Shown here piece by piece: positions 4,514 through 33,373 of a stretch of DNA of 64,000 bases. Location of the stretch: assembly GCA_054600435.1 (NCBI GenBank), contig BAAIJX010000003.1, forward strand, positions 62,001 through 126,000, given 5' to 3'. Below the pieces are notes generated by a model. It was not told the origin of the DNA, made no database searches, and saw nothing but the letters and a program-made list of their open reading frames with translations. Made by a program: the position numbers and the translations under genes. Each line of letters begins with the position of its first letter. Within the stretch, counting starts at the first letter, position 1. This DNA is from Neophaeotheca triangularis. Taxonomy: Eukaryota.

Positions 4514-5100
4514 TCACTTGCAGTTAAGCGTCACCCTCGTCTGCCCCTTATCCGTATTGGCGGTAAACTGCAAGTTGGCAAAGACCGCCGCATCATCCAG
4601 ATCAAAGTCGTCGTCGTCAAGTCGCAGGGCTGTGTTCCAAATATCCACAACTTTCGGGTCGGGCTTCTGGTTGGAGAAGAGTTCGTACGAAGTGTACCAC
4701 TTGCCCACGCGAGCCGTTGAGAAGAGCCCGGATTTCTCTGTCTGTTGGGCCAGAACGTCTTTGAGGTCTTTGAGATCTTGTTTGGTTTCCGCTCGGCAAG
4801 GGCGGTCGCCTAGGTAAGTGATGCAGCACGCGTTGGCGGCGTTTCGGTCCTGGCAGACTGTGAAGGGGTTAGTTATTGTCGATTTTATTTGGGGGGAGGG
4901 GCATAGATGGGATGTATGCGGGACTTACCTTTGCTGAGGTCCCACCAATCGTAGTTTGACAGGCGCTGTGCACCCGTTGGCTCGCAGACAGAAGGGACGT
5001 CACGCTTGTCAAGAGTGTCCAAAGAGTCAATTGGGGAGGCAAAGCTCGAGGGCAGAAGGACTGCAATTGCAGTAGCAGCAAGGGCGGAAGTTGGCTTCAT
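4514..5100 (-). CDS. Small secreted six-cysteine protein (171 aa) with Kex2-type pro-domain; effector candidate; exons 5100-4929 and 4857-4514
   Basis: Signal peptide MKPTSALAATAIAVLLPSSFA followed by SPIDSLDTLDKR. Intron GTAAGT(4928)...CTAAC...CACAG(4858) joins in frame to VCQDRNAANACCITYLGDRPC...RVTLNCK*. TATA-like ATATAAAA on the minus strand near 5243-5250. Confidence 0.85.
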
Positions 5101-5513
5101 TGTGCTTTGGAAGATGGTTGTATTTGGGAATAAATCGATGATTCCGTGGTGTAGGTTGGGTTCGGTGTGTTCGATGCAGAGATAAATGTTGGTTGCTGTT
5201 GGTAGTGAGGTTATGCTGTCTGTAAGAATGGGATCAAGTCGGTTTTATATTCATCTTTACAAGACATCCAACCACTCTCTTCTACTTTCGAGACCATGGT
5301 CAACATGCTATATTCGTTCATGGCACTGCGCCTTGTCGAACGTGGGTCAGGACAACGGACGTGTTTCTCCTACTAGGCACGATGGATTTAGCCAATCGAC
5401 CTACATATGGCTCGTGAGTTTTGTGATCGCTGTTGGCATACACTTGTCACCGCCACATTTGAGCTTGGCTGCGCCTTATAAATATATGTAAACATATATA
5501 GCAAAGCAATTAG

Positions 5514-5665
5514 TGTTGTAATATGTAGCGGTACGAACTCGATTGATTGATTACCAAGGACTAAACTAGGTGCTTTGCAGCAAAGCCTATAAAGACAGGT
5601 TGCGGCTTCTGCAGCTTCTACCTCAGGCATCTGTTACGTGCTACGTAGTACGGCTCATTACAACA
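5514..5665 (-). repeat. Copia 3' LTR (152 bp)
   Basis: Matches 19668-19819 with 8 differences by manual alignment, all transitions. Purine tract AGGGAGAG directly upstream on the minus strand (5666-5673). Confidence 0.96.
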
Positions 5666-5673
5666 CTCTCCCT
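5666..5673 (-). other. Copia polypurine tract
   Basis: Minus strand AGGGAGAG abuts the 3' LTR. Confidence 0.75.
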
Positions 5674-5902
5674 ACTGTCAAGCAACACGTGAATGCCCTT
5701 TTTTTTTTTAGTAGTGACTATGTGAATGCTACGTTTTGCGGCAATTGCCGCTACTACGCGCTACTATGCGTTGTTATGTAGAAGCTACTAGTGATAGGTA
5801 GAAGGTGTTTTGCTATTACTTTCAGGAAGCTCCTAAAAGAACATAGTATTATAAAAAAAGGCCTACTTCTCCTACTATAGTTCTCTAACCTTTCTTACTA
5901 CT

Positions 5903-6750
5903 ATAACCTTCTCTAATAACTAGTCTTGTCTTTACTAGTTACCTTAATACTAATAGCTTTACCTTCTACTAATACTAGCTAGTAATACTAATAACTTTAG
6001 TACTAATAGTAGTATAGCTACTATTAACTAAAGCATAATAGGTAGTATAGGTAGCTCTAGTAGTAGTAAGAAGCTACTAACTAGTACTCCCTCTAGTTAT
6101 GCTATATATGACCTAAACTAGCTAGCTACTTTAAGTAAGTTACTATAGACTAGCTATAAGAATTTCGCTAACATCTTTAGTCCTAAACTATATCTAGCTA
6201 GACCTAGCTACCCTATATAGAATTCGCCGCATTATAGTTAATCTTAGACTAGATAATGTTAAGTAAATACTACTACAATTCCATAATAATGAAGCCTAGT
6301 AGTTCTATACCTCTAATAAGTCCCTAGCCCTAAAGAATGAACTAGAAATAAGGGTAGCTAGTAAGAAATTTTACCTATCTTCTACTAAGAACACTAATTA
6401 CCTCCCTACTACTATGACCTAAGCTACTAAGGGAGGCAAAATTCATGAAGGGGATATAGCTTACACTAGATATAAGAAGGGTAATAGCCCTTAGAAGAAT
6501 TGTGTTATCTTAGAACATAAAGGAAAGAAGTTTATAAAGGGAGCCTATAGTAACTATAGCTATAGTAACTATTTTAACTAATATGACTTCTCTTATAAGT
6601 ACTACTAATATAGGCCAATTTCCGTAGGAATTCTTTACTAATATATAGGTAGCCTATTAACTAGTCCTATAAATAAAGTCTTTATAGGAAACTCTAGTGT
6701 CTTTACTAAGAAGGATAGGGTTAATAGCTAGCTCTCCCGCTCCCCTAATA
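5903..6750 (+). pseudogene. RIP-mutated intron-containing gene antisense to copia pol, encoding a DUF3716-like Cys-rich domain; both ends approximate
   Basis: Plus frame ~6396-6593 reads NYLPTTMT*ATKGGKIHEGDIAYTRYKKGNSP*KNCVILEHKGKKFIKGAYSNYSYSNYFN*YDFS. Reverting TA to TG/CA gives N..AAMAQ...CxRCxKGNGPWKNCV...GACxNC...CDF. Intron GTAAGT(6135)...GCTAAC...TTTAG(6180); probable second intron 6595-6648. Confidence 0.75.
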
Positions 6751-7183
6751 ACTAGTAGATATACTAAAGTGCTAATCCCTAATAGTATTAATTAGAGTAT
6801 ACTAGCTAGGGCTACTATATTTACTTAGGCCTTAAGGTAAAGGGTAGATATCTATAGTAGTAAGTCTACCCTTAATAGGGGAATAGGTCCTAGATCTACA
6901 CTATCTACTATAAGAGCTAGGTCTAGTAGGGAAAGCACCTTTTAGGGCTTCCTAACTTCTATAGGAAGCTCCTCTAGTTCTAGTAGTTCTTCTTCCTCTT
7001 TAAGCCTCTTAGTAAGGAAGGATAATAGCTCTAAGAGTAGTTAGAGTAATCCTAAGGATAGCTAGAAGAAATAAAATAAAGGAAAAGGGTAGTGATGTCC
7101 TATAAGGGTGTTATTTTTTAGGGGATAGTTTCCTAAGGTTTTAGTGTTTTCTAGGGTTTTTTGGGTTTTGTTTCTTAGGTTTC

Positions 7184-7406
7184 TATAAGACTAAGACTAT
7201 GACTCGGTCAGGATTACGGTATAGCGAGAGTAGAACGTAATAATGGTAATAATAGTAATAGTCCTTTAATATAGAAACTATTCGATAGTAGATAGGAGAC
7301 TTTACTATTAGCTATCTCATATACTTTCGTAGTATGTATACTTAGTACTCCTAAGCTACTCTATAGCTTAGACTACTAATATCCTACTAGCGCTATAGTC
7401 GTGACA
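7184..7406 (-). repeat. Gypsy 3' LTR (223 bp)
   Basis: Aligns to 14741-14963 at identical length; minus strand begins TGTCACGAC. Purine tract GAGAGGGAGG at 7411-7420. Confidence 0.95.
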
Positions 7407-7410
7407 ATTA

Positions 7411-7420
7411 CCTCCCTCTC
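7411..7420 (-). other. Gypsy polypurine tract
   Basis: Minus strand GAGAGGGAGG, 4 nt upstream of the 3' LTR. Confidence 0.8.
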
Positions 7421-8119
7421 TAGTAGCTCGTCCTCGAGCTAGTACTTATAAGTACTATTCTTAAGACCCTAGTATAGTATATATATTAGTACCCTCGTTA
7501 AAAACCTCGGTAGTATCTTTACTAAGGAAAAGAGTAATACTATATACTACTATTATACCGTTAGGTTCCTAGAGTATATTTACCCTAAACCTGAGTTCGC
7601 TATAGCGAGGTACGTTATCGTCGCGATAAGTAGTATTAATAGCTATATAGTAGTAATCTAGTAGAGTAGTAATTACTAGTAGAGCCTTAGTATAATTACG
7701 CTATAATTACGTAGAGGTAGTCTACTAGCTACTTCTCTTTCGAAGACTTCCTCCTTCTAACCATAACAATAATAGTCTCTACTCCGTCGTAGTCCCTTTA
7801 GTATACTAGTCTACCTTTTAATAGGGTGACCTTCTTTATTAGTAAGTGAACTTTAGTTCTTTATATATATACTACTATTAGTCTATATACGGTTCCTATT
7901 ATTCTTCGATAATGAAACTAACCTTATCTAGTTTCCTATTATTACCTACTTCTAGTAACCTTTCGAAAACCTCACTTAGCGTAGTTTAATAAAAAGGCGC
8001 TCCTCGTACCTCTAATACCTTCTCCCCTTCTTTATTAACCACTTTTTTCGCGATCTTACTATCGCCTTTTTTTTCGCTAGCTTTATTTACTACCTTCATT
8101 ACTCTACTACTATTCTATT

Positions 8120-9478
8120 ATGTCTCTACATATTAGTAAGCGTATAAAGGTACTAGTCGACTATAGCGTTAGCGCTATAGCTATTAATAGTAAGGGTACC
8201 TTTACTATAGATAGGGCGATTATCGCTAAGGGAGTCTTTATGACTAAGGGCTACTATTAGATCGACACTAGTAACTTTATAGAAGAGGAGTTAAAGGATC
8301 TAGTCGATAAGTCGAAGTCTACTAAGAAGGGTTTAAAGTTAGAGAGTATTAGTACGAAGCGCACTATAGCTACTAAGGGTATAGGCTTGAAACGTAAGTA
8401 TACTATAGATAATAATAGGGAGGAGAGTAGTTCTAAGGAAGATATACTAGTGTTCTATTACCTCGCTAACATCGATAAGGATGTAGAGCTTAATCCTCCT
8501 AACATTAATCGCTCTTATTATTCGTATTATATTAAGGAGCTCTTAAGTAATATTCTTACTAGATCTATCGACTTCATCCTACTATACTAGATAGTGTCTT
8601 CTATAACTAGATCAGTATATAACATCTATTAGGATATAAAGTAGTCCTACCTCGAGGTAAGCCTACTATTACTCTATTATCATTATGAGTTCTCGCTAAT
8701 ATCTTTTTAGATCATTCCTAACCTCGCGAGCTAGTATAGCTACTATGTCTAGATGAACTATACTACTATACTCTATCGTGCTAATCATACTAGTAGTAGT
8801 AGCGCTAGTTCGCTAATATACCTTAAGGTCTTAGAAGTTAATGCTAAGGTCTCCTAGTACTTCTATAAGAATAACCGCGCTGTCATCCTAATAGGGGGCC
8901 TTCGTCGTTCTAGTCCTAATAACGATAAGATCTTAACTCTACATAATATAGTATGCCTAATTATGGATTAAACTCGCAACTTCGCCACGATCATTACTAA
9001 TGCTATCGAGAGGCTTATCGCTATCTACTATATAGAAATGTCTATGCTTATTAACGAGATGTCTAGCTATTATTATGCCATGTCTTCTTCTTCGCCGCTA
9101 TATACGACTCCTAGTGTTAGTGTGTCGCCGCCTTATGATAAGACTATCGGTATACTAGTAGAGGCCCTTAAGGTACTAATGTCGACATCTAGAGCTCTAG
9201 TTCGGAGGAGTAGTAGGGACGATACTAGTATGCTACTAGAGATGTCTTCTAATAAGGATTCTTCTTCTTTATTAGAGTCGGATTAGGAGGACGAGGCTCC
9301 TATAGTACTAGTAGTAATTCCTAGGTATATAACGGAGGTTAAGGGTTTGTTTTAGATAAGTAGTAGGAACGATGACGCTCTATCGGTAGTAGAGAATGTA
9401 GGGGGGTCTATTAGTGCTAAAGATTAGCTATAGGCTAATATTGCTAAGGTTTTAAAGGAGTTAGACACTAGGGCTTAA
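8120..9478 (+). pseudogene. RIP-mutated intron-containing accessory gene (~435 codons) antisense to gypsy pol, with putative six-Cys motif
   Basis: ATG 8120 and track ORFs 8387..8590 and 9038..9286 share one frame, with about 12 internal stops by manual count, all TAG/TAA. 54-nt intron GTAAGC(8657)...GCTAAT...TTTTTAG(8710). Confidence 0.7.
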
Positions 9479-9559
9479 GCGTTTATTTAATCATTTACAT
9501 ACTCTCTATAAGCGCCGTTGTCCTATCGCTAGTCTATCTATAGTAGCTATTAATTAAGA

Positions 9560-12500
9560 AGCTTATATACTATGTCCTTTTCCTATAGTTTTCTTCTTTT
9601 TTCCTAGCTATATATTCTTAACATTCTTTTTCTTTAGGCTTTATGTTTTCTTTCTATGCTTCTTTTTCGCGCTACTATAGGTCTACTAGTGTTACTCGAA
9701 GTCTATAATTACTTCTTTCGCATTATTTAGATGCTTCTCTTTCTCCTAGGTTCTCTCTTCTATTAGCTAATCTCTCTAAAGAACATAGTATGTCTTATTA
9801 CTATTATTATCGAGACTAGATACTGTTATTTCATCGATAACCTATTTATCGCCTCTATCGACTTCTCGCTCTACTAGTAGTACGAAGTCAGTATATTAGT
9901 AGTATAGTTCGAGGAGGGAGATGTAGAAGATATTATAGATCTTTCCGAGGTATAGAGGTAGGGCTAATTAGTATACTTGTTTTCTAACCCTTATTATGAT
10001 TTAGAAGGGCCCTACATAATGTGAGGAGTACTTTTTTGTTAGTCTTAATGTTTTCAGGTTTTTCGCGGAAATAAGAACCTTATTATCGACACTAAATACT
10101 ATAGGATCATGTTTTCGGTTATAGTATTCTGCCTACTTACTAATAGTATACTAAATGTTGTCCTTAATAGCTTCGCGAATTGCTTTCTAGTTTTCAGTTC
10201 TTTCTTAGAGGTTAGGGATTGTCAGTTCGCTACCTCCCTCTCTAATAGCATTATCCATAATACTACTAGGCTGTTAGGGCTCTACTCTATAGATAGTAAA
10301 GAATAGCGACACTTTAGTTAATATACTTATACTATTATTATAGGCAAATTCGGCCTATACGAGGTAATAAGGCTAATCTGTCTATATAAAGTTAACAAAA
10401 TATCATAGATACTATTCTATTATCTAGTTTTGCCTCTCTATCTACCTATCGGACTAAGGGTAGTATGCTGTCGATAACTTACGCTTAGTTTTCTAATACC
10501 GAAAGAGCTCTATCTAAAATGTAGAAGTGAATATACTACCTCTATTAGTTATAATTGAATTTAGCTTACTAAACTTAGTAAGAATTTCATGCTCGAAAAT
10601 ATTAGCTAGTTAGTAGGTCCCTATTACTTCGCTAATAGGGATATACCTCGTGAACTTTAAGAAGCGGTTAACAATAATTAATATAGAATTAACTATTTTA
10701 CCCTTATATGTCTCTATAATAGACAACTTAACTACTATATCTATAGACTAATACTTAAAGATCTTATTAGCACTTAGAACCCTTAGCGATTATAATACGC
10801 TATAGGGCTAGTAATAGCGCGATTTATGTCTTTAGTAGGTATTATACCTAAGGACATACTCTTCGACATCCTTAGTCTACTTAGACCACTAAAACTCCTT
10901 ATAGAAGATAGCTTTAGTCTTCCCTACTCCTAGATATCTTACTAATAGGTCCTTATAGTAGTAGCTTAGTATAGCGGTCTATAGGCTTTCTACTAGTAGT
11001 ATATATACCTTTCTATTAATCTTAAGAAGTCCTATAAAACTAACTAACTATATAGGTATAGCGCTATTAGTATCTCTATAGTACTATCTCTTATCGATCT
11101 CTTTACGAATACATTTAGTAAAGGGATCTCCCTACTATATATGTAACATATCCGCTCTAAGGTTAATTCAGTCTACTACTATGTTAGGCTCTCTAATGTC
11201 TAGCTCGGTAATAGCGAGTATACCTAGCTACTTACCTATAGGGTCATAATAGGTTAGTACTACTATAGTGATAGAGCTAGTCAGGTTTAGTTTACCTCCC
11301 CCTTAGAGCTTTCGCTTAGTGTACATAGTATCATTACTCTAAAGCTTATTATTTAGAGGACTAGTGTCTCTAGTAGCTATTATGTAGCCTACTAGTAAGG
11401 CGGCTAATGTCTAGTAGTTTACTAGCGCTATATACCCTAGCGATATAGATAGGATCTCTACTCTATCTTCGGTAGCTATTATGTAGCTACTCGCTAGAAC
11501 TTTAGTAGCCTTATAGGGGCCTACTAGGGGAGCGAAAAGCCTAGTTAATATAGATAGTATTTCCGCCCTACTTAGTTCTCTATTAGCCTCTATATTAGGA
11601 TAGCGCGAGAGCCTATCTACTCTAGGGTTTAATTTACCTTTATAGTATGTGATCTCGATGTTATATTGCGATAGCTCTTCTATAGCGCGCGCTTAGTAGC
11701 CTAACAATTTCTTTATCGATAGGAAGTATTTCAGATTGTTATAATCTATAAGTACCTAAACTTTACTCTTAGCTAACAATATGTAATACTACTATTAGCA
11801 TATTACCTTAATAATGGTAAGTAGTTCCTAATCATATACTAGATATCGTAACTCTAGCCCTTTAAGCTTCTTAGAGTAGTATACGACCGGATACTATAGT
11901 ATGTCCGAGTGCTTCTATATAAGTATACCTCCTAATACATATCCTAATATATCGGTCTTAAGGTAGGTCTCTAGCATAGCATTAAAGTGCTGTAGTACTA
12001 GTACTGAAATGAAGCTATACTTTAACCTTTTAAAGGATTTTTAGGTATCTTTACCTAGTAGCTACCATTTACTACCGCTATACTATAGGTAGTCTATAAG
12101 GGGAGCGGTAATCTTTACATATCCCTTAATAAAGCGATAATAGAAATTCGCGAATCCTAGGAATACTTAGAGTTCTTTTAAGGACTTTAGTATTAGCTAA
12201 TCCTAAACTATAGCTACCTATAGGGGCTCTATCGCTACTCTAGTAGAGTTAATAATAAAACTAAGGAATCTAATCTCTTAGACTATAAACTCGCATTTCT
12301 TGAGACTAGTATATAGCTTAGCATTAGCGAGCTAACGGTAGACTACTCGAACATGTTCGCGGTATTCTACTTCAGTATAGGAATAGATAAGAACGTTATC
12401 TATATATACTACATAGTAGTAGTTAACTAGCTCTATAAGTATCTTATTAATAAAGGCCTAAAATGACGCTAGTATGTTAGCGAGTCTAAAAGGTATGACC

Positions 12501-14692
12501 TTATATTAGAAATAGCTATACTAATAGTAGAACGCTATCTTCTACTCATCGCCCCGGGCGATACGTAAACAGTAGTATACTTCGACTAAGTCGATTTTCG
12601 AAAACTATGTTGATCTATAGACTCTATCTAAGAGTTTACTAATAAGCGGTAAAGGATACTTGTTCTTAATAGTGATTTCGTTTAAGCCTTAGTAATCGAC
12701 ATATATATAGAGTTTACTGTTTTTCTTCTTAACAAATAGTAATAGTATACTAGTAGGGCTAGTACTAGGCTTAATACGGTCTATCGCGAGTAGGTTATTA
12801 ATCTATAACTACATTTCCTCGAGCTCGGGCTTAGAACATAGGTAGATTAGTCTACTAGGAGGATTCTTCCCCTCGACTAGTTCGACATAGTAGTTATGAA
12901 GTATATATAGAGGTAACTCTTTCGCCTTCTCCGATTTAAACACCTTAGTATACTCTACTAACTACTTAGGTACCTATAGCTCTACTAGGGTCCTATATAG
13001 ATCTTCTATACTAATAGCGAGGATAGATGCTCTACTATTAATATTTTAGGCTAGTTCTTTGGCCTCGATAATTTCGACTTCTTCTTTATTATACATACTA
13101 CTATAGCGCTACTATACTAGTAGCGACGCGAAATCGAGCTATGCTTTTATAGATTAGATCTAAGGCATTCTAAGAATCATTTCATGATCCTTCTAGTTCA
13201 CTACTTCGAACATTTATAGAATGGTCTGAACTATACTGTCTAAATTAGCGACTTTAGTATAGAGTCGACATCAGCCTACTATTAGGGCTTTAATATCGCT
13301 AAAGGCTTATAGCTTACGAATCTAGTCACCCTTTATTAGTAGGTTATACTAGACTACGATGTCTTCTAAGATGACATTATAATGCGCTCTTATATCGATA
13401 AGCCTATAGGCCTTAAAGCGTAATCTGTCGTGGGTTCGATCGTATATCTTTATAACAGCCTATAGGCGCTCTATTAACATACTACCTACTTATCGCCCTA
13501 AGCCTTTAAGGCTAATAATTGAATGACCTAGGGCTAAGCTTTTCCCTTTTAGCAATTTTCTTACTAGTAGCCTTTACTACTATACTTAAAACAAAGGTTT
13601 TCTTTAAGGGCTCTATTGTTTCGTTCGCTACTATTAGTCGAACCTATATAGTTCATACTAGTCGCTAGTGTCCTATTAGTACGCTAGTAGCGCAGTTTAG
13701 AGTTGTTATCGCTTATACTCTAGTTTTGTTCTCTTTTCTTATAGCTAGAACCTCTTAAGTCGGTCTTATGTAGCTTGTCTACTATCTCGCCTCTAGCGTC
13801 CTAGCTACTATAGCTAGTATCGTCGAGACGTATATAAAGCGCGATAAGGTTATACTAGTTATCTAGTACTATTAGCTAGACATTTAGCTTAGTCTTAAGG
13901 TTTTCCTATAGACTAGTCTTAATAAGGGTAAGGAGTATATACTCTAGTAGTAGGGTAATGTTAGCCTTATAGAGGGAGTCTTCGACATATAAGAGGTAGT
14001 CGTGAATAGATTAGGTCGCTCCCTAAATATGTCTAAAACCTCGGAATGCTATGTTTATAGTATGGTTTTTAGGATTGAGGATCTAATCTAGTAGCCATTC
14101 TTTAAACATAGGCTATTTCATCTCTTCACGTTCGAGTCATAACTCTTTACTCTCCTAGTTCTAGCTAATATAGCTATATAGGTAGCCTATAGTATACTAG
14201 ACACACTCGTACTAATAAAAGTAAATATAAGGGTATGTCTTAAATACACGCTCATATTACTAGATAAATATCTATACTTTTAGGAGGTTAGGGTAACTCC
14301 TATAAGCCGCTAGTTTGGCTAAGCGAAAAGCTTTCTCGATATCGATATGAGACTTTCGCTCCTTTATCGTTATACTAGTAAGTAGATCTTCGTCTACTAT
14401 CTACTTATATGCTACTAGGGTAGGGGTAATGTCTACTAGGTCCTCTAGTTCGATATGTCCTCTTTTAGACTCGTTATAGGGGACCGTCGCTCTATTAGTA
14501 GCTCGCTAAATAGACGCTATACGCTCTACTAATTGTTATTAGAGTTCCGTAATAATAGTAGTAAGGACCGTGTATTAGTCTATAGCTACCTCTTCTTGTT
14601 CTTATAGGGTGTTAACTCTAGTAATAGTGTTAGGGGAGTCCGCTAGGTTAGCGTTGTCGACCTATAGGTATAGCGAGCGCGATAGTACTATA
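9560..14692 (-). pseudogene. Gypsy gag-pol (RIP-degraded) with C-terminal chromodomain; ends approximate
   Basis: Gag knuckle LCFKYSSKGY**ENC (~13555-13600, =CxxCxxxxHxxxxC) followed by slippery GGGAAAA. RT YYVVYIDNVLIYS (~12385-12420). Integrase IIVNRFLKFTRYIP and KRKLSTAYYP*SDR*IER*N (~10430-10680). GPF motif ~10010. Chromodomain *VIDEI...YYVL*RD*LIEERT*EKEKHL (~9720-9845). Confidence 0.93.
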
Positions 14693-14740
14693 ATGTCTAA
14701 GCGAATCTTAACCTAAGAAGGTTCTAAGATCGAATAGAAT

Positions 14741-14963
14741 TATAAGACTAAGACTATAACTTAGTTAGGATTATGGCGTAGTAAGGGTAGAACGTAATAA
14801 TAGTAATAATAGTAATAGTCCTTTAATATAGAAACTATTTAATAGTAGACAGGAGACTTCACTATTAGCTATCTCATATACTTTCATAGTATATATACTT
14901 AGTACTCCCGAGCTACTCTATAGCTTAGGCTGCCGATATCCTACTAGCGCCGCGGTCGTGACA
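14741..14963 (-). repeat. Gypsy 5' LTR (223 bp)
   Basis: Pairs with 7184-7406; followed on the minus strand by the primer-site region and gag. Confidence 0.95.
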
Positions 14964-15126
14964 GTTTCTTAGTTAGTATAAAGGGAATACTACATAGTAT
15001 AGTGGGTTTCTCCTAGGATGGTTTTCTAGAGTTAGTATTTTCTTAGGGTAATTTTATAGAGTTTAGAAATAAAGGGAAAATGCTACATCCTATAAGGGTG
15101 TATTGCTCTCTAAGAGTAGGATGATC

Positions 15127-18100
15127 TTAAATCATCTAGTTAGGGGACTTTAGCTTAGTTAGACTATCTACTAGCTACTTAGTAGTATTAATGTATTTAA
15201 CACTAATAACCCCCTTCTCAAGCTACTCCTTATAGTAATAGTTTCTAAGGGATATGTGCTTTAACCGCTTTAAGTTAGTATAGTCTTCTATAAGTAGAAT
15301 AGCTAACTTATTATTAACATGAACTTTAATAGTTTTTAAGCTGAATTCTATTAAAGGCTAAAGTTTAAGGAAAAGATTCTATATCTAGTTAATTTCCCTT
15401 ATAGTCTCTATTAATATAACGTACTCTACCTTAGTACTTAATAGAACAACTTCCTTCTATCTCTAAGATCTCTAGACTATAGGTATACTATTTATAAAAA
15501 TAGCTAAGCTAGATATTAATCTAGATATAGCTAGATTACCTATAAAATCTAAGTCTAAGTAGGCCTTAATAGAAATCCCTTCCTATCTCTTATAGATAAG
15601 CCCTCTATCTATAGTGTCTATAACATATCTCTAGATATATGTTATAGCTATAACATGCTCCTTAGATAGGTTTTAAAGGAACTTTACTAAGTAGTTAACT
15701 ATATGAGACATGTCTAGCCTTATCTAGTTTACTAGGAATTATAGTTCCCTAATTATCTTATTAAAGATATGATAAACCTACTAAGTACATTACTTCTTAG
15801 AAGGTTTATATAGGTAGTTAAGTAGGTACTTAATTGTCCTTACTTAGTCTAGATTATGTCCTTTAAGTTTATTAAGGGTATAATACTTCTAGGATAGCTT
15901 AATAGTATTCCTACTCTCCTTAATATATAGGCTTAGGAAAAGGTTAGTGTCTATCTCCTTAATACTATACTTCTTCTTTATCCCTATAATGAGCTACTTA
16001 ATCTTCTTAAGTTTAGGGCTAAAGATCTAGAAGTTATCTACATGTATTAAAACTAGTACATTGTTACTAGTAAAAAGATATGTATTAGACTTTATCTACT
16101 TTAGTCCTATTAACTTAAGATAGGATATAGTATCTTAGAACTAGAGGTAAGCTATCTACTTAAGACTATATAAGCCCTTATTAATCTTTATAAGCTTACC
16201 CTTCTTATCTTTAAGAATGAGTTTAAGTCCTCCTAGTACCTAGATAAAGATCTGTCTATCTAGATCAGGATTTAAGAATGCTATCTCTATATTAATCTAG
16301 GTTCTACTTTATTTAAGCTAGAATGTAATAGCTAGGAGGATCCTTCCTATTCCTAGCCTTAGTGTTAGTATAAAGGTATTAACATAGTTAGTACCTTATT
16401 TCTATAAGAATCCCCTTATTATCTATCTAGCCTTATATTTATTAATAGAGCTATCTAGGAGAAGCTTTAGCTTAAATACCTACTTCCCTATAAGTGCTCT
16501 TCTACTAGGTAGTAGCTCTAATTACTTAATCTAAGTAATTGTACTAGTAGACTTAAGGCTTTTAATCTCCTTAATTATTATAGCCTTCTACTAGCTTATA
16601 TCCTTTCTACTAAATATATCGTGATAGTCCTTAGGATTATTAGTAGCCTAGGTTATAGCTCTTATATATAACTACCTATAATTCGACGATTTTATAGGCC
16701 TACCTACCCTTATATATATTAAGGGCTAAGGGGATAGTGATCTCTTCCTCTTACTAGTAGTTAGCTAAGGGAAGAATAGTGTTATTAAGGTATCTCCCTA
16801 ATCTTCCTCTATTAGGTTAATAGAGGGCTACTATTACTCTCTCTAGTCTATAGGGGAGACTTCTTAGTACTCTCCCTATTCTATAGAAGAGGCTTCTTAT
16901 TATTACTCTCCCTATTCTATAGGAGAGGCTTAATGTTATTACTCTCCCTTAGGAGAGACTTATTAGTAATCTCCCTTAGGAGAAGATTAGTACTCTCCCT
17001 ACTCTTTAGAGGAGACTTACTAGTATTAGTACTCTCCCTTAGGAGAGGCTTATTAATATTAGTACTCTCCCTTAGGAGAGGCTTATTATTATTACTACTC
17101 TCCCTTAGGAGAGGCTTATTGTTATTACTACTCCTATTATAGGCTATTAAAGTTCTCCTAAAGCCCTAGGATATAAAGGGCTAACTACTCTCCCTAAACT
17201 ATAGGAATCTAAATAGGCCTAAAGTAAGTATCCTTATTAAAGGTTATATATAGGCTTTAAACAATACTAAATAGGTCCTATCTAATTAGTAATATTAGGA
17301 GGTAGTTAGTAGTAGAGTTGTCTTAGAAGCCTATAAACTAGTAGATAGTAGCTCTTAGGGTAAACTTTTCTAATGTAATCCTATTCTAGTTATGTAGGAA
17401 TGCTTTATAGCTAAATCTCCTAAGGTTAGAGAGGTTAATGGTCTAGTCCTTAGATACCTCTAAATCCTCCTTAAGGTATTATAGGGGGATCTTCTTAATC
17501 CTAAGGTTATAGACTATATTAGTAATATAGATTATATAGTTTATAGCTAGGAGCTAGAGATCTCTAGGAATACTAAAGTTAATCATTATTACCCTAGCCT
17601 TAGCTAGGATGGTTTTATTAGATAACTCTATAATACTATTCTATTTAGGAGTCTTTAGACTTAAGATGTCCTATCTCATCCCTATCTACTATACTATAGT
17701 AATTAAATTATAGTTGATAAACTCCCTACTACTATTAGAGAACTATATCTTTAGTATCTTATTATAGGTATTTATAGTTCTTACTATAAAATTCCTAATG
17801 AGTAATAGTACCTCACTTTTATTTCCTATAAAGAGAGGCTACCTAAACCTGGTTTTAGAATCTATTAGGAAGATAATATACCTTAGACTAGTACTAGAGG
17901 TTAGTGTGATAGGGCTAACTATGTTAACATGTATCTTATCTAGAGCTTAACTAGTCCTTACTCTTAAGGTTCTTAAGACAATCCTTTAAGACTTTAAGAG
18001 TTTATAGACATTATAGTAGCCTAGAGCTATAGTGTTTACTACTTCAAGTCTAGTTATGTGTTATTTAGTAGCATTAAGAATATTACTACTAATGTGGCCT

Positions 18101-19575
18101 AGTCTTTAGTACTATCTAGTTATATCTATCCTTAGCGCTAATACTACTAGTACTACTAGTAATCTTAGTATAGCTATTACTATTAATAGTAGGCTTTATT
18201 ACTAAGGTAGTAGGAGGATTTTAACATTTTATATAACATCTACCTTATGAACTTACTTCACTATTCTAATAGTGCTTTTATTAGACCTTAGCTTATTAGT
18301 ATATCTATCTAGAGCAATCCTATACTTCTAGTATAGTGTGTCTACATAAATTAAGTTAGTAGAGGATCTTAAGGAGTATAGGACGTTCTTTAGGGTAATA
18401 CTAAAGATCTTGTTATTATGTTTAAGGGAAAGCTTAACTATCCCTAAATAGGTAATAGAGGCCTATCTAATAGTCTAGCTAAAGGTAATTAGCTTCCTAA
18501 GGGGCTTAATATCCTAAAAATGCTTAAGCTTATTAAAGAAAGAGAAGGATAATCTAGAGTTTAAGATAATAGTAATTTCTAGTACTATAGCTTATAGTAC
18601 TATAGGGAGAGATAGAGTAACACTTAACATACCTCCTAAAGATAAGGATAAGATTAACTTAGCGTTACTATTATCACTATTATTAATAGCTGTAGTAGCT
18701 TTTCTCCCCTTCTTCTTAGTAGACTTAGTATTCCTATTCTTCCTTATATCTTTCTTCTTTCTCCCCTCCTACTTATCCTTATTACTATCTTTACCTTTCT
18801 TATATTATTTAGGTACCTACTTTAGGTACTACTTAAAGCATTTAGTATTAGTGTGTTAGTAGTGATTATATTAGGTATAGATATTACCTTTTACTACCCC
18901 TATAAACCCCTATATCCTTCTCTATTACTAAGATAGGGGAGGTAGGGCCTTAGACCTAAGACTAGTAATTATATCCTCTAAGCATTTCCTACTCTAAAGG
19001 AGGTTATTATGTCTCTAAGTCCTAAGCTACTCTATATTAAGAGTACCCCCTTTAAAGAGAATCTTAATGTAGTTATCTAGGAGACTAATACTAGCTATAT
19101 TTGTCTAGTTCCTTAGAGTAACCTACTAGTCTATAGCTCTCTTAAAGGTCTAGTAAGCTACTATAAACTCTTAGTAATACTTTAGGGTATTTATTCCTTA
19201 TAGCTTAATGCTATAGAGGTTAGAGATAGCCTTATAGAGAGTAATTATAACATTAGGCCTATAGATAGATTTGATATACTTAAATAGCTTATAGGCTGTC
19301 TTATGTGATATATTATAGTTAGGTCTATATTCGTCTAATAGCCTTTCTATAATAATACTATATATAAGTATATCTTTCTTATAGAACTTAACTATAGTAT
19401 CCCTTATAGATAATACTAGTTAGACTACCTTTAGTAGCTATTTAAGGTCATGAAACATATAGTTAAGATAGTCCTTATTAAGTAGCTTACTCTTTAGGAT
19501 AGCCTCTTAGATACTAAAGATTATGTTCTTTTTAAGGATCTTATTGTCCTTAGCTCCCTTATTATTTGTGTCTAT
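15127..19575 (-). pseudogene. Copia gag-pol polyprotein (RIP-degraded); ends approximate
   Basis: Knuckle YT*YNHY*HTNTKC (~18840-18880). Pre-integrase *Y*RLGHIS (=WHQRLGH, ~18090-18115). Integrase LDKIHVNIVSP (~17915-17945). RT INIEIAFLN, GLYSLK*, LIHVDNF (~16030-16295). RNase H LSTKVEY, KRLKHI, *LVDSLTK (~15150-15445). Confidence 0.93.
16830..17135. repeat. Tandem repeat (~9 units of ~24-39 nt, core ACTCTCCCTTAGGAGAGGCTT) in the copia INT-RT linker
   Basis: Repeat visible directly. It reads NNNKPLLRES-like in the pol frame and produces the spurious ORF 16933..17142. Confidence 0.85.
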
Positions 19576-19650
19576 TTTGTTTAACTAGGGATAGTTATCC
19601 TAGGAATTGTTCGTAATTAGCTAGTTTTATGCTCGCTTATGTAGATTGAT

Positions 19651-19667
19651 GCGCTAGGCTCATAACC
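19651..19667 (-). other. Copia primer-binding site complementary to the anticodon arm of initiator tRNA-Met
   Basis: Minus strand GGTTATGAGCCTAGCGC directly follows the 5' LTR. Plus strand GCGCTAGGCTCATAACC resembles the tRNAiMet anticodon stem-loop with its CAT anticodon. Confidence 0.85.
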
Positions 19668-19819
19668 TGTTGTAATATGTAGCGGCACGAACTCGATTGA
19701 TTGATTACTAAGGACTAAACTAGGTGCTTTGCAGCAAAGCCTGTAAAGACAGGTTGCGGCTTCTGCAGCTTCTGCCTCAGGCATCCGTCACGTGCTGCGC
19801 AGTACGGCTCATTACAACA
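19668..19819 (-). repeat. Copia 5' LTR (152 bp)
   Basis: Pairs with 5514-5665; flanked by the ATTAG target-site duplication at 19820-19824. Confidence 0.96.
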
Positions 19820-20594
19820 ATTAGAAGGATCGTGAGAGATTTACTCCCGTAGGCCCTCCGACCCATGATCACCGAGGTCGTGCTTGATTCATAGCTCAGT
19901 GGTTACTAATTATAACTTATATGTAGCTGCACCGCCGCCTGCTCCATACGATGGATTTTGGCCGAATCTAACGACACGATTGAGAACAGGCGACCATTGG
20001 ATTATGGCATAGTCCAGCTCAATCTCAAACTGTCGAATGCCACAAACTAAACTCATCAGCTGTGCGCTAGTGTCTGCATTCCAAGACACGACAGCAAATT
20101 CTTACGAGTCTAGCTATCCTTCCTCACATATAATAGCTAGCAAAAGCAGATTCCATCACGACAGACCCGCAAACTTCAGACTCATCTGGTCGTGGCACCC
20201 CACGCCTGCTACCGAGTTCAGCAGCAGTAATCGCCTCAAAGCTAGAGAAATGCTGTGGATGATACGCCCATACCAATGATGAGGGACGTGGAGTTTAGAG
20301 CTGGGCAAGATAGACAGATACCATCGGTTCGAGGCCAGGATGAAGCTGTTGGATAGGGACATTCATCGCTCGCTCCAAGGGTACTATTATAAGCGAGAGT
20401 TTCCCGTCCCTATACCTGTCTCCTTTCATCCAATCGAACGAATGCTTCGCCGTATGCTCATGAGTCCAACCCGGAAACCAAGCACTCTCATCCCAAAATC
20501 CCCTTTTTCGAACCCACTGAACCAGCACTCACGTCCCTGCCCCCACCGAATCATCCCCCGCCATGGAAACCCAACTAGACAAACTGGAGGAATC

Positions 20595-21936
20595 CTACTC
20601 CCCCACGCCAGCACCAGCAGCCGCGCCTCCCTCTCCCGCCGCCGCAACAGAAACTCTAGCCTTCTTAGCACTCCCGCCCTCTTTTCCCCCATTACCACCA
20701 CTGTCAACCTCGCTCCCCCTCTTCCTCTTCCCCTTGCCACCACTGCCCCCACTCTTCCCCCCTTTAGCCCTATAAGTGCCATCAGGATCCTTCCCCTTCT
20801 TCTTACCCAAAAGGGGCGGTGGCGCAAAACCCACCTCCCCACCAGCATCACCACCCACACCTCCATCCTCCTCATCGACCACCCCCCCACCGGGGCTCAT
20901 ACCCTCTCTCGCCCTGGCGTGCTCTACAGCACGATCCCCAACCTGTTTAGCGAGATCGCTCTTATCCTTCTTCTGACGTTTCTTAGGCGGGGGCTTGGAA
21001 GCAGAAGTCGGAGTTTCGGAGTCGGCGGCCACGTCGTCGTGGGGATCGAGTGGGATGGTTGCGTGGGCGTTTTGATGCGGTTTGGCATGTGTGCGGAGCC
21101 AGTTGTGTTGGGAGTGGGGGTTGAGCATTTCGGCTTGACGGTCAAATTCGCGGGATGTGAGTTCGGTGGGGTTGGGAATATGGGTTGAGTGGGTGGGGGA
21201 GGGATGTGTAGTAGTGTTGGTTGTGGTCGTGAAGCTGTAGGGGTCGCCTAGGCGCGCGTCGAGCTGGGCTAGGTGATCGCGTTCTTGGTCTGGGGTTAGG
21301 AAACCAGGGAGAAGGTCGCCTGTGAGATCCGGAGGTAGGTCGGTGGGGTCTGTGGAGGGTATTGTGTGTGGGATGGTGGTTTCGAGGTGTTGTAGGGTAG
21401 GGACGTCTTGGGCTGCTAGGCGTTGATCGATGCTTTCGCGGATGATGTGAAGATCTAGAGGGGGGAGACGGCCTTGCTGAACTGCTGCGGTGTATTCGTC
21501 TAGCATGTCGTTGGCCTGTTCTGGTGTGATGTCGACGGGAACGCGATTGTTTGCGGAATGGCGGGGAAGGGAGATGTCGAAGCGGAGGTCTGGCGGGATG
21601 GAAGGGTTTTGGTTGAGTTCAAGGCAAATGTCAAGGATGCCACTGCAATTACGCATTAGTATGGCATACAAATGGTAGTGGTGAGGTTCATGCATACTCC
21701 AACTCTTGCCGCAACCTCTTCGCTGTAGCTTCCAGCTTCTGTTCCTCCCTAAACATGCGCCGGTTCTCCTCCAAGACGCCGTCGAAGTGGATGCGCATTT
21801 TGCGATACTTTTTGCGCCATGACTTGTAACGTGGTTTGTCGCCGCTACCTGTGATTGCTGCCAGACTGGCCAGTGACTTTCCGCCGTAGGGATTGTGATG
21901 ATGAGACGGGCCCGCAGTACCCTCGGAGTCGGACAT
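20595..21936 (-). CDS. IEC3: INO80 chromatin-remodelling complex subunit Iec3-like; intron 21697-21643
   Basis: N-terminal KPRYKSWRKKYRKMRIHFD...LEATAKRLRQEL, later NPHSQHNWLR and DPDGTYRAKGG. Intron GTATGC...CTAAT...GCAG joins ORF 21688..21936 to ORF 20595..22193. Confidence 0.88.
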
Positions 21937-22281
21937 GGTGGGGGATAGTCGGTCGCGGTAGTGAAGGCTATAAACCGATATTGTTCAATTGGTCGTGTTT
22001 GTTGGTGGTGTGGGATGAAGTGCGATGAGGTGAAGTCAAGCAGAGACGGACGAAAGAGGAAGGCAAGTCGCGCTGTCGCAGGCCGGGATATCTCTTGGCG
22101 AGTGTAGCTGGCCCAAGCTTTAACAGATGAGTATCCGATTGGTTGAGCCAAAACTTCCCGAGTCCAAGTTCGAGAGCTCTGGGAAATTTCCAAATCGCTT
22201 CACATGCTTCTTCTACTAAAGATACACGCATAACAGCAAACTCTTCACCCTCGGCTGGATACCTCAGGTTCACCAGCAACC

Positions 22282-23790
22282 ATGTCGGACAGTGAGAAAG
22301 ACGCTGTGCAGATAGCAAACATGTCAGACAGCGAGCAAGAAGACGCCGTAGTAGCAAAGGCAGCCGCCAAACAAGCCCGCAAACTGCAAAAGAAGGAAAA
22401 AGCGACAAAGAAAGAGTCGCGGAAGGCCTCAAAGAAGGGAGATGAAGTTATCGACGACAGCGATAGCGACAACAAGAGCAGCAGCAAGAAACGCAAGCGC
22501 TTCACCGACGACAAGTCCGCCGAAGGTTCCGATTCCGACGACGAGAACAAGCTCGAGATTGACATCAATGCCGCCGAGCCGCCCTCGAAGAAAGCCAAAC
22601 GTCAACTGCTCAAGGACCAAAAGCGAGCCCAACGCGCCGCAGCCAAACAAACCACCACTGCAGACTCGACCTCCCAAGCCGTAGAGCCAACTAAACCCGC
22701 CCCTGCACCCGCCTCCCAAACCACCCAAAAGAACGGCGCCGCTTTTGGAATCTGGATAGGAAACCTCCCCTGGAGTGCCAAACAAGAAGACATCCGCCAA
22801 TTCTTCACGGAAAAAGCCTCCATCCCAGCAAACGCAATAACCCGTTGCTACGCCCCACCACCACGAGCCGAAAACGTTGACCCCAAACGCGCGCTGAAAC
22901 CACAAAACCGCGGCTTCGCATACGTTGACTTCAGCAACAAGGAACTCCGCGACAAAGCCATCGAGCTCTCCGACACCCTCCTCAACGGCCGCAAAGTCCT
23001 AATCAAAGACTCCAAATCCTTCGAAGGACGACCAGACGCCCACACGACTGCTTCCACCACCACCAACCCCGGCGCTCCCAAAGCTGCCGGTAAACCCCCT
23101 TCGCAACGCATCTTCGTCGGCAACCTCGGGTTCGACATCAGCCGCGACGACCTCCTCACGCACTTCGCCCAAGCCGGCGAAGTCGAAGACTTGCACATGG
23201 CAACTTTCGAGGACACGGGAAAATGCAAGGGCTTCGCATGGGTGCGGTTTAAAGAGCTCGAAGCAGCGGAAGCGGCAGTACGGGGTTTCATCCGCAAGCG
23301 CCCCGACGACGCCAGCGACTCTTCCACAGATTCGGAAGATGACAGTGGCAGCGGCAGCGACGACGAGGGCGTTCACCCGGAGCGCAGGAAACGGAACAAA
23401 TCCGCGCCAAAGCAGAAATGGTACATCAACCGCCTGCACGGCCGGCAAATGCGATGCGAGTTCGCCGAGGACGCGCAGACGCGGTATAAGAAGCGTTACC
23501 ACGCCAACGCACCCACCGACCAGAAACCAGCCGATCGCCGTCGTCCCGCTCCGACCGGTGATGAGGGTGACGAGACCCATGGCCGCGGCGGGAAGATGAC
23601 TACAGGCGACTGGGCGGCTAACGGCGGTGGTAAGGTTAGGAAATCGGGGGATAAAGAGCAGCGCCGTGCGGAGAGGGCGAAGAGGCATATCGATGCTAGA
23701 AGCGTCAAACCCGGTGCCGCGTTGGCGGGAGCTAAGCGCAATACCGGAGCGATTGTCGAGGCTGCGGGAACGAAGAAGACATATGATTGA
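22282..23790 (+). CDS. NOP13: Nucleolar two-RRM RNA-binding protein (Nop13/Rnp24-like)
   Basis: 502-aa ORF with LEIDINAAEPPSKK, RRM1 IWIGNL...NRGFAYVDF, LIKDSKSFEGRP, RRM2 IFVGNL...CKGFAWVRF and C-terminal PGAALA...G.K. Confidence 0.85.
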   Translation: MSDSEKDAVQIANMSDSEQEDAVVAKAAAKQARKLQKKEKATKKESRKASKKGDEVIDDSDSDNKSSSKKRKRFTDDKSAEGSDSDDENKLEIDINAAEPPSKKAKRQLLKDQKRAQRAAAKQTTTADSTSQAVEPTKPAPAPASQTTQKNGAAFGIWIGNLPWSAKQEDIRQFFTEKASIPANAITRCYAPPPRAENVDPKRALKPQNRGFAYVDFSNKELRDKAIELSDTLLNGRKVLIKDSKSFEGRPDAHTTASTTTNPGAPKAAGKPPSQRIFVGNLGFDISRDDLLTHFAQAGEVEDLHMATFEDTGKCKGFAWVRFKELEAAEAAVRGFIRKRPDDASDSSTDSEDDSGSGSDDEGVHPERRKRNKSAPKQKWYINRLHGRQMRCEFAEDAQTRYKKRYHANAPTDQKPADRRRPAPTGDEGDETHGRGGKMTTGDWAANGGGKVRKSGDKEQRRAERAKRHIDARSVKPGAALAGAKRNTGAIVEAAGTKKTYD

Positions 23791-24914
23791 GTAGGAGAGG
23801 GCAAAAGGGAGTAAGGCATGTGAGAGGTGTAATGCAAGTGTAGCATGCGCCTGCGAGATTCCTCCCCTATCTTTGAGCGCGCGGTTCGGCTCACTCACGT
23901 TTACTTCAGACGAGAGATTTTTGGAAAATAGATAAATTTCCTCCTTCTCAGCGTGATACACGCAAATTCGTATCCTCCATCGTCTGGTTCCCAGTCGCAA
24001 TTGCATCCCACGGAAGCCCACCGTGACCGCGAAAGCATCACTACAAACCCCCTTCCCAACAGCCAGCCATTACGCACCGTACAAAAAAAAGCTATCGTTC
24101 CCTCCAACAGCCAATGCATCCCCCACCCTCCCTACCTTACCATACCGCCCATGCCCGCGACACTCCCCCCCCTAATATCCTCATCATAGCAACGATCGCG
24201 CCTCACAGTCCAACCCAACCATATCTTCCAGCACAAGCCAAGCCCAGTAACTCGAGCGCCACCCACCTCCACGAATACCTCCGCAAGTCTCGAGAAGAAC
24301 CCAAAAGGCGTCTTTGCCTCCCCACGGCACCTACCTAGGTCGACGTTGTTTTCAGACGAAAACCGGGCGTTGTTAGCGGGAGCAGTAGCTCTGGCGTCAG
24401 GCGAACCTTTGGGGCTGGGGGCTCGGGGGAATGTGTAGTGTGTTGGTGTCTCGGCGGGCGTGGATTTTATCTAGTCTTGTGGTCCTTTTGATTTACCGAG
24501 TCGGAGGGTTGTGGATGAAATGGAGGTGTCGAGGGTCGGGTTCTGGCTTTTGCTTGATTCGCTTGAGGGGGTTCGCGAGCTGGGTTCGATTGGGACGTGG
24601 GGATTTGGCCAACGGTCTTCACTCGGACACTGTTCCGGAATGAAGGTCATGGGCGCGGGTAATTGAATCGGACGGAATTTTCGCAGGCTCGAGGAAGATC
24701 TGCGAGGTTTGTTGCGGGTACGTTCGTTTGAAGAGGATTTGCGGGAAAAGCGGATCTTTCCCGGTCTGAGTTGATCAGGTTTTTTTGATATCTCATACGT
24801 TTCGTTCTATCGTACTAGTCTCAAAACCACCCATCTCAGCCAAGAAAAGTGATATAAAAATTCGTTTCGGTCGCTAAGGTGTCAAAGCCCCTTCCCCCAT
24901 CATCCCGAACCCAT

Positions 24915-32786: not shown

Positions 32787-32870
32787 ACTACTATTACTAC
32801 TACTACTACTATTACTACTACTACTACTATTACTACTACTACTACTATTACTACTACTACTACTGCTACT
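32787..32870. repeat. (ACT)n microsatellite with an 18-bp higher-order unit (ACT)5ATT
   Basis: Seen directly; intergenic. Confidence 0.95.
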
Positions 32871-33373
32871 TACTGCAACTACCTCCTACACCTTAATCAA
32901 CGCTCAAGCGCCGAATACAATATTGCTCCTAGCTTTAATTCTTTTTCAGTGTCATGTTCGACTCGATAGAATTTGTTGTTAGGCCTCTTTCTTCTTACAT
33001 AGAAGTCGAGGTCTGATCGCCAAGGTAATTGGGAATAATATCACCGAACATCGCTTATCTTTGACACAAGCGAGCCAAGCGAGCCAAACTTCGAAGCCGT
33101 TCCGCGCCGAGGCGGGCGATAGGAGGGTCGGTCGAGGTTTGACGGCTTGAGCGTCTTCCTTGTACGTTCTCTTGCTGCAGTTTTACTAATCAAATGTCTG
33201 TCGTGTATCGTTGAAAGTTCGAACAGATGTTACTCAACAGCCATGGTGTGTGCGGGATATTGTTCGCTACGTACACGGTCGTAAGTCATTCAAGCTCAGC
33301 ATTTACTTTCCATTCGCCAGCCGCATATCTGTGCCCTTCCAACAGTATATCATCCCTCCACGTCACACTCTCT

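Follow-up and report, generated by a model that had tools for sequence, protein, structure and literature searches.

A probable antisense accessory gene, inactivated by RIP, between pol and the 3′ LTR of a chromovirus-like Ty3/gypsy element

Results

Nested retrotransposons in an AT-rich block

The window (the whole 64-kb stretch of DNA analysed here) has a GC content of ∼53%, except for a block at ∼5500–19800 where GC falls to 30–37%. Two pairs of repeats frame this block, an inner pair at 7184–7409 and 14741–14966 (88% identical) and an outer pair of 95% identity. These mark a gypsy element on the minus strand (7184–14963) and the copia element, also on the minus strand, that received its insertion; RVT_2 of the latter lies at ∼15850–16509, on the minus strand (Table 1). 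In the block, TpA/ApT is 1.8–2.3 and (CpA+TpG)/(ApC+GpT) is 0.31–0.39, with 1.83 and 0.31, respectively, for the gypsy element, compared to 0.68–0.73 and 1.16–1.19 in the flanks. RIP is indicated by values above ∼0.89 for the first index and below ∼1.03 for the second, and both the gypsy element and its copia host are heavily RIP-mutated.

The limits of the AT-rich block lie close to the copia end repeats (5514–19819), and the dinucleotide indices are normal outside it. Within the copia internal region, residues 16832–17133 consist of 33–36-nt tandem repeats in ∼8 copies, whose unit, TAGGAGAGGCTTATTATTATTACTACTCTCCCT, is partly palindromic. Just beyond the repeat block, the region 20000–24000 shows a GC skew of −0.34 followed by +0.36, an AT skew of up to 0.38, and long ORFs, one of which encodes a Lys/Ser/Asp-rich protein of 502 amino acids (22282–23790) and carries at its start a 39-nt tandem repeat. 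Further along are an ACT-type microsatellite of ∼16 ACTACT units (32787–32882) and, in DNA of normal GC content, arrays of 57–99-nt tandem repeats (33633–34081). A tRNA scan of 5000–21000 found none.

The gypsy element is a complete Ty3/gypsy retrotransposon, with an LTR pair, a 5-bp target duplication and the domain order RT-RNase H-integrase. The insertion is complete since GTTTC flanks both LTRs, and its minus-strand orientation follows from that of RVT_1, RT_RNaseH_2/RT_RNaseH, Integrase_H2C2 and SH3_Tf2-1. The pol domains were found in one minus-strand frame between the LTRs, with stops read as X. I searched the rest of the window for a second copy of the element, or of the ORF described below, and found none.

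Table 1. Features of the gypsy element, of its antisense ORF and of the copia ends (positions in the window).
Feature	Position	Strand	Remarks
Copia LTR-like ends	5514–5665 and 19668–19819		95% identical
Target-site duplication GTTTC, left copy	7179–7183		Directly adjoins LTR end; insertion into copia
3′ LTR	7184–7406	−	223 bp; 88% identical to 14741–14963, differences mostly transitions
Polypurine-tract-like run	7407–7421	−	AGAGAGGGAGGTAAT on minus strand; abuts 3′ LTR; read from sequence
∼0.7 kb before antisense ATG	7422–8119	+	Possible room for promoter/5′ UTR
Antisense accessory ORF (probable)	8120–9286	+	388 codons + TAG; 9 RIP-type stops; basis: stop density, gapless relatives, direction of change
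Intron-like segment, putative	8657–8710	+	54 nt; GAG|GTAAGC ... GCTAAT ... TTTTTAG
Putative 3′ UTR	9287–9478	+	C-terminal extension in the earlier note; 5 stops in 65 codons; outside the relatives' coverage
Chromodomain-like end of pol	9653–9832	−	Judged by eye, without Pfam score
Integrase C-terminal SH3_Tf2-1	9902–10081	−	PF24626, E 3.1e-09
Integrase_H2C2 zinc-binding domain, weak	10817–10987	−	PF17921, E 5.2e-04, under curated cut-off
RNase H domain of pol	11663–12052	−	PF17919 (RT_RNaseH_2), E 9.8e-16; PF17917 (RT_RNaseH), E 4.9e-13
Reverse transcriptase	12251–12730	−	PF00078 (RVT_1), E 2.1e-13
gag zinc-knuckle remnant C-x2-Y-x4-Y-x4-C	13552–13593	−	TAT/TAC at the CCHC Cys/His places
5′ LTR	14741–14963	−	223 bp; paired with 7184–7406
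Target-site duplication GTTTC, right copy	14964–14968		Directly adjoins LTR end

The element looks like a chromovirus, a label that draws on the SH3_Tf2-1 match and on a chromodomain recognised by eye. The end of pol reads ...YYVLxRDx...ERTxEKEKHLNNAKEVIIDFExH, with a TAG at the place of an expected Trp, and resembles a RIP-damaged form of the chromodomain consensus; the Pfam Chromo family does not match 9620–9862, even at E up to 10. Pol ends at ∼9650, which leaves ∼2.2 kb before the 3′ LTR (7407–∼9650), close to the ∼2.1 kb given in an earlier note made from the DNA alone.

Openness and extent of the antisense frame

The earlier note placed in this gap an accessory gene opposite to gag-pol, and not an env. 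This arrangement holds: the pol domains are on the minus strand, the ORF and its protein relatives are on the plus strand, the ORF having the end of pol on one side and the polypurine tract and LTR (from 7421 and 7406) on the other, and the minus-strand frames of the region are closed, with 15–31 stops per 200 codons.

From the ATG at 8120, stops are found at codons 47, 157, 171, 175, 197, 205, 211, 246, 284, 389, 412, 436, 438 and 453, that is, 14 up to 9478 (13 TAG/TAA and the final TAA) and not the ∼12 reported before. The nine within codons 1–388 are the minimum among 2634 stretches of 388 codons, drawn from the six reading frames of the RIP block 5514–19819 (mean 41.8, sd 12.8), so that the frame singled out in the earlier note is the most open of the block. 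First-order Markov shuffles of the stretch (n = 2000) gave a mean of 36 stops and a minimum of 20. Stop density is 2.3 per 100 codons in the antisense ORF versus 6.3 in pol of the same element, and directly upstream of the ATG the same frame has seven stops in 105 codons (7805–8119). The long antisense frame in the interval from pol to the 3′ LTR is genuine, although the copy in the window cannot make the protein and is dead.

The 3′ end of this frame had been placed at ∼9478, giving ∼435 codons. One of the relatives described below, P0005, ends at the window's TAG codon 389, five stops follow in the next 65 codons, and no relative covers these. It is therefore most likely that the ORF ends at the TAG at 9284–9286, after 388 codons, rather than after ∼435–453.

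Relatives of the ORF and the direction of change

The homologue search proposed with the earlier note returned three relatives from other assemblies, among ∼15 billion predicted proteins. Searching 5.8 billion protein clusters by word index identified P0003 (283 amino acids), which aligns to codons 1–283 without gaps, with an E value of 7e-109 and 68% identity. A word-based search with P0003, which otherwise matched only itself, added P0004 (156 amino acids, codons 1–156). HMMER with the window ORF against 1.84 billion representatives matched only P0004 and P0005 (112 amino acids, codons 280–388). All three align to the window ORF without gaps, in its frame and at 68–71% identity, and P0003 and P0004 share its start Met (MPPHVSKR...). 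Each is an unnamed protein and the sole member of its cluster, and they originate from two or three short contigs of Logan assemblies. P0003 is encoded on a contig of 1483 nt; P0004 and P0005 each lie on one contig of 4151 nt, and may therefore be two pieces of one copy.

Metagenome contigs searched with P0003 gave no match. With P0004 as the query, one metagenome locus was returned, on a bacterial-looking contig of 57–62% GC; it shares only the word FTEEELKDL, at the end of an unrelated 323-amino acid ORF, and I consider it spurious. A search from alignment A1, confined to proteins of 30–60 residues, found no homologue.

Nearly all differences between the window and its relatives are C>T or G>A in the window. 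For each differing position, I asked if the window codon can be derived from any codon for the relative's residue through C>T or G>A alone, and likewise in the opposite direction. For P0004, 47 of the 49 differences can be explained from relative to window, two only from window to relative, and none remains outside both classes. The corresponding figures for P0005 are 28, four and none (32 differences), and for P0003 they are 62, 11 and 18 (91 differences). Judged by these changes, the window copy descends through RIP from a sequence almost the same as the P0004/P0005 copy, and P0003 is a somewhat diverged, partly mutated copy.

The internal stops had all been regarded as revertible to CAG, TGG or CAA. 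This is borne out for seven of the nine, where a relative has Gln (at codon 47, P0004 has Arg), and fails for the remaining two. Codon 157 is a stop both in the window and in the P0004 copy and Asn in P0003 (codons 156–157 are at 8585–8590), and codon 171, TAG in the window, is Phe in P0003; neither is explained by single RIP transitions.

The proposed zinc cluster

A further proposal was that the ORF encodes a nuclear, Zn2Cys6-like zinc-cluster protein, with six Cys codons (TGT/TGC) converted by RIP to Tyr. The six codons in question (134, 137, 156, 167, 170 and 177) are indeed TAT or TAC, with the proposed spacing, and RIP does make Tyr from Cys or His codons in this very element, as seen in the gag remnant (Table 1) when set against the CCHC knuckle pattern. 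In addition, codon 156 is Cys in P0004. However, all six codons are Tyr in P0003, and P0004, which covers three of them, has Tyr at 134 and 137. The Tyr codons next to these, 133 and 136, are Arg in both P0003 and P0004, so that RYSRY in the relatives has become YYSYY in the window. Across codons 1–388, the 32 Tyr codons of the window correspond in the relatives to Tyr (17), Arg (14) and Cys/Tyr (one). The three relatives possess only one, one and no Cys in total, and at codon 279, the sole Cys of P0003, P0005 has Arg.

The Zn2Cys6 pattern is CX2CX6CX5-12CX2CX6-8C. The spacing of 18 residues proposed after the second Cys departs from the six of this pattern, and the likeness is confined to the last three hypothetical positions, C-x2-C-x6-C. 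Those six codons were moreover chosen out of eight Tyr codons in the region 133–177. Pfam, including Zn_clus (PF00172), has no match for the window ORF (with X at the stops), P0003, P0004 or P0005. With its cysteines absent from the less mutated relatives and no profile match, a zinc cluster is extremely improbable here; the proposal fails on the refuting condition given in the earlier note, codons that stay Tyr. This carries a more general caution, as many Tyr codons in RIP-mutated DNA derive from Arg (CGY to TAY, through two transitions), and reading Tyr back to Cys is therefore unsafe unless a less mutated copy is at hand.

The intron candidate

The intron signals proposed at 8657–8710 (GTAAGC...CTAAT...TAG, 54 nt) are present. 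Within the 14.3-kb block, the plus strand has no other strict donor, G|GTAAG, with branch point and acceptor. Patterns that loosely resemble introns are common there (10 donors on the plus strand and five on the minus strand, with three inside 8120–9478), and a loose match therefore means little. Against an intron, 54 nt is divisible by three, and the P0003 frame continues across the segment without a stop, with 10 of the 18 residues similar, about as elsewhere. The strict donor and the in-frame read-through roughly cancel each other, so that 8657–8710 may be an intron with a likelihood of about one in three.

Properties of the predicted protein

In the less mutated relatives, the N-terminal ∼280 residues are basic (pI ∼9.9), with the clusters KRTK, RRR and GSKRKRA followed by an acidic patch, and the C-terminal tail is Ser-rich and acidic, as had been suggested from the window itself. 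The product would probably be nuclear, and may associate with nucleic acid or chromatin; the support for a nuclear location is the KRKR-type basic cluster.

Structure-based searches add little to this. A profile from alignment A1 matched no solved structure in the PDB at E up to 10, and the AlphaFold2 model of P0003 alone is uninformative (mean pLDDT 34.4, pTM 0.23). The ESM Atlas gave no usable match for P0003, and for P0004 only leads below 0.9, to clusters from Ascomycota; in one of these, 40% of the members carry Myb_DNA-bind_8.

Searched with phmmer against PDB sequences, P0003 returned only chains of ribosomal protein eS21, with residues 220–275 (8777–8944) aligned to eS21 19–73 at a best E value of 0.13. 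The shared pattern is ...EVD.KV...G..RR.G..D.IL.L. This E value is not significant, and neither Pfam (eS21 family, PF01249, no match for the segment at E up to 10) nor the A1 profile reproduces the similarity, which is probably due to chance.

Discussion

A probable RIP-killed gene and its alternatives

The antisense ORF is probably a real protein-coding accessory gene of a chromovirus-type Ty3/gypsy element, situated after pol and before the polypurine tract and 3′ LTR, and killed by RIP. In an intact element, transcription of such a gene would start at a promoter of its own, within the ∼0.7 kb that separates the ATG from the 3′ LTR, and would converge with that of gag-pol. Any intron in it would outlast retrotransposition, as the genomic RNA corresponds to the other strand. 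By analogy with gene23 of Grande and with retroviral antisense proteins, the product might act as a nuclear helper or regulator of the element, associated with nucleic acid or chromatin.

Other origins for the ORF have to be weighed against this. It could be a piece of a transduced host gene, or a passenger of one lineage, with no role in the life cycle of the element. Transduction of cellular sequences is named as one possible origin of such regions in PMC11963269, the family is very small, and the eS21-like segment is a candidate source. Yet that similarity is the insignificant one described above, and the remainder of the 388 residues matches nothing. P0003 has also stayed open for 283 codons in spite of 18 residue differences that RIP does not explain, which fits some constraint on the frame, and I regard this origin as unlikely. 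With three relatives, known as protein sequences, the gene can be called a candidate for a constant part of this retrotransposon family rather than a passenger of one lineage.

An unrelated gene or transposon may instead have inserted secondarily into this gypsy copy, as the unusual distance from pol to the 3′ LTR (∼2.2 kb) could suggest. I found no ends of a nested element in 7300–9900, where repeats are at most 36 nt and at most 83% identical or complementary, and no target duplication; the RIP indices equal those of the rest of the element, and no other part of the window matches it. A secondary insertion is thus very unlikely. Somewhat less so, though still improbable, is a functional antisense RNA, acting by transcriptional interference or as a source of small RNA against the element, with an ORF that is incidental or weakly constrained. 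The lack of a recognisable domain and the low-confidence structure prediction are compatible with this, and PMC10648671 discusses transcripts antisense to fungal retrotransposons. Conversely, a 388-codon ORF whose start and end are conserved in three copies is unexpected for a non-coding RNA, and its stop density is the lowest of the block after heavy RIP.

For the protein-coding gene preferred here, a more ambitious and rather doubtful extension is that the ORF founds a lineage-restricted and so far undescribed family of accessory proteins in ascomycete chromoviruses, sequence-unrelated to brtn and to all Pfam families. Such a family would carry an antisense intron that is proof against replication, and would encode a basic nuclear protein needed for transcription, integration or escape from silencing by the host.

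Comparison with known antisense ORFs

ORFs that run antisense in the interval from pol to the 3′ LTR are described for Boty (brtn), Grande, RIRE2 and Retand (PMC7264820, PMC11963269, PMC8365987), and PMC7264820 presents the antisense accessory genes of LTR retrotransposons as having no known function in any organism. The literature on such ORFs cites brtn as a fungal case. Fungi offer tractable genetics for the function of antisense accessory genes. If the present reading is true, the ORF would provide a second, sequence-unrelated fungal case, implying that chromoviruses acquire such genes repeatedly, and another handle on their role. The window copy, being dead, is of value for pointing to intact copies in related strains.

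As in the ORF described here, the coding strand of the retroviral antisense proteins HBZ and APH-2 lies opposite gag-pol, near the 3′ LTR, and HBZ has a spliced form. They differ in that an animal retrovirus transcribes them from its 3′ LTR, and share no sequence or domain similarity with the ORF. Both HBZ of HTLV-1 and APH-2 of HTLV-2 are described as nuclear regulatory proteins (PMC11963269).

In plants, ORFs of this kind (aORF-3R) comprise gene23 of maize Grande and those of rice RIRE2 and Silene Retand, the latter with a TRP28 domain, PF04195 (PMC7264820, PMC11963269); most Retand antisense ORFs carry TRP28 (PMC11963269). For Grande, a nuclear product expressed from a promoter of its own is cited (PMC11963269), and the function of the plant ORFs is given as unknown and thought to be regulatory (PMC7264820, PMC11963269). 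Their position and orientation are the same as those of the ORF at 8120–9286. However, Grande, RIRE2 and Retand belong to non-chromovirus (Tat/Retand) lineages, while the present element is fungal and its copy RIP-inactivated, and TRP28/Transposase_28 (PF04195) has no Pfam match in the ORF or its relatives.

A fungal parallel is Boty (Zhao et al. 2011, Virology 417:248, as reported in PMC8365987, PMC7264820, PMC4227169 and PMC5987419), which has an extra gene of unassigned function on the opposite strand, in the interval from pol to the 3′ LTR. This gene, brtn, occurs in Botrytis cinerea and in Sclerotinia sclerotiorum (PMC7264820, PMC8365987), BRTN-like transcripts are reported in Monilinia (PMC5987419), and gag-pol of Boty ends in a chromodomain, with gag, ZnF_C2HC, RP, RT, IN and CHROMO listed (PMC4227169). 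Both elements are gypsy elements of filamentous ascomycetes with one extra opposite-strand gene at this place; for the present one, the flanking DNA is ∼53% GC. HMMER and word-based searches, in libraries where the presence of BRTN is unconfirmed, gave no sequence link between brtn and the ORF. With the position and orientation of Boty, Grande, RIRE2 and Retand but no detectable sequence or domain link to them, the ORF is most likely, to judge from sequence comparison, an orphan addition to this already known arrangement.
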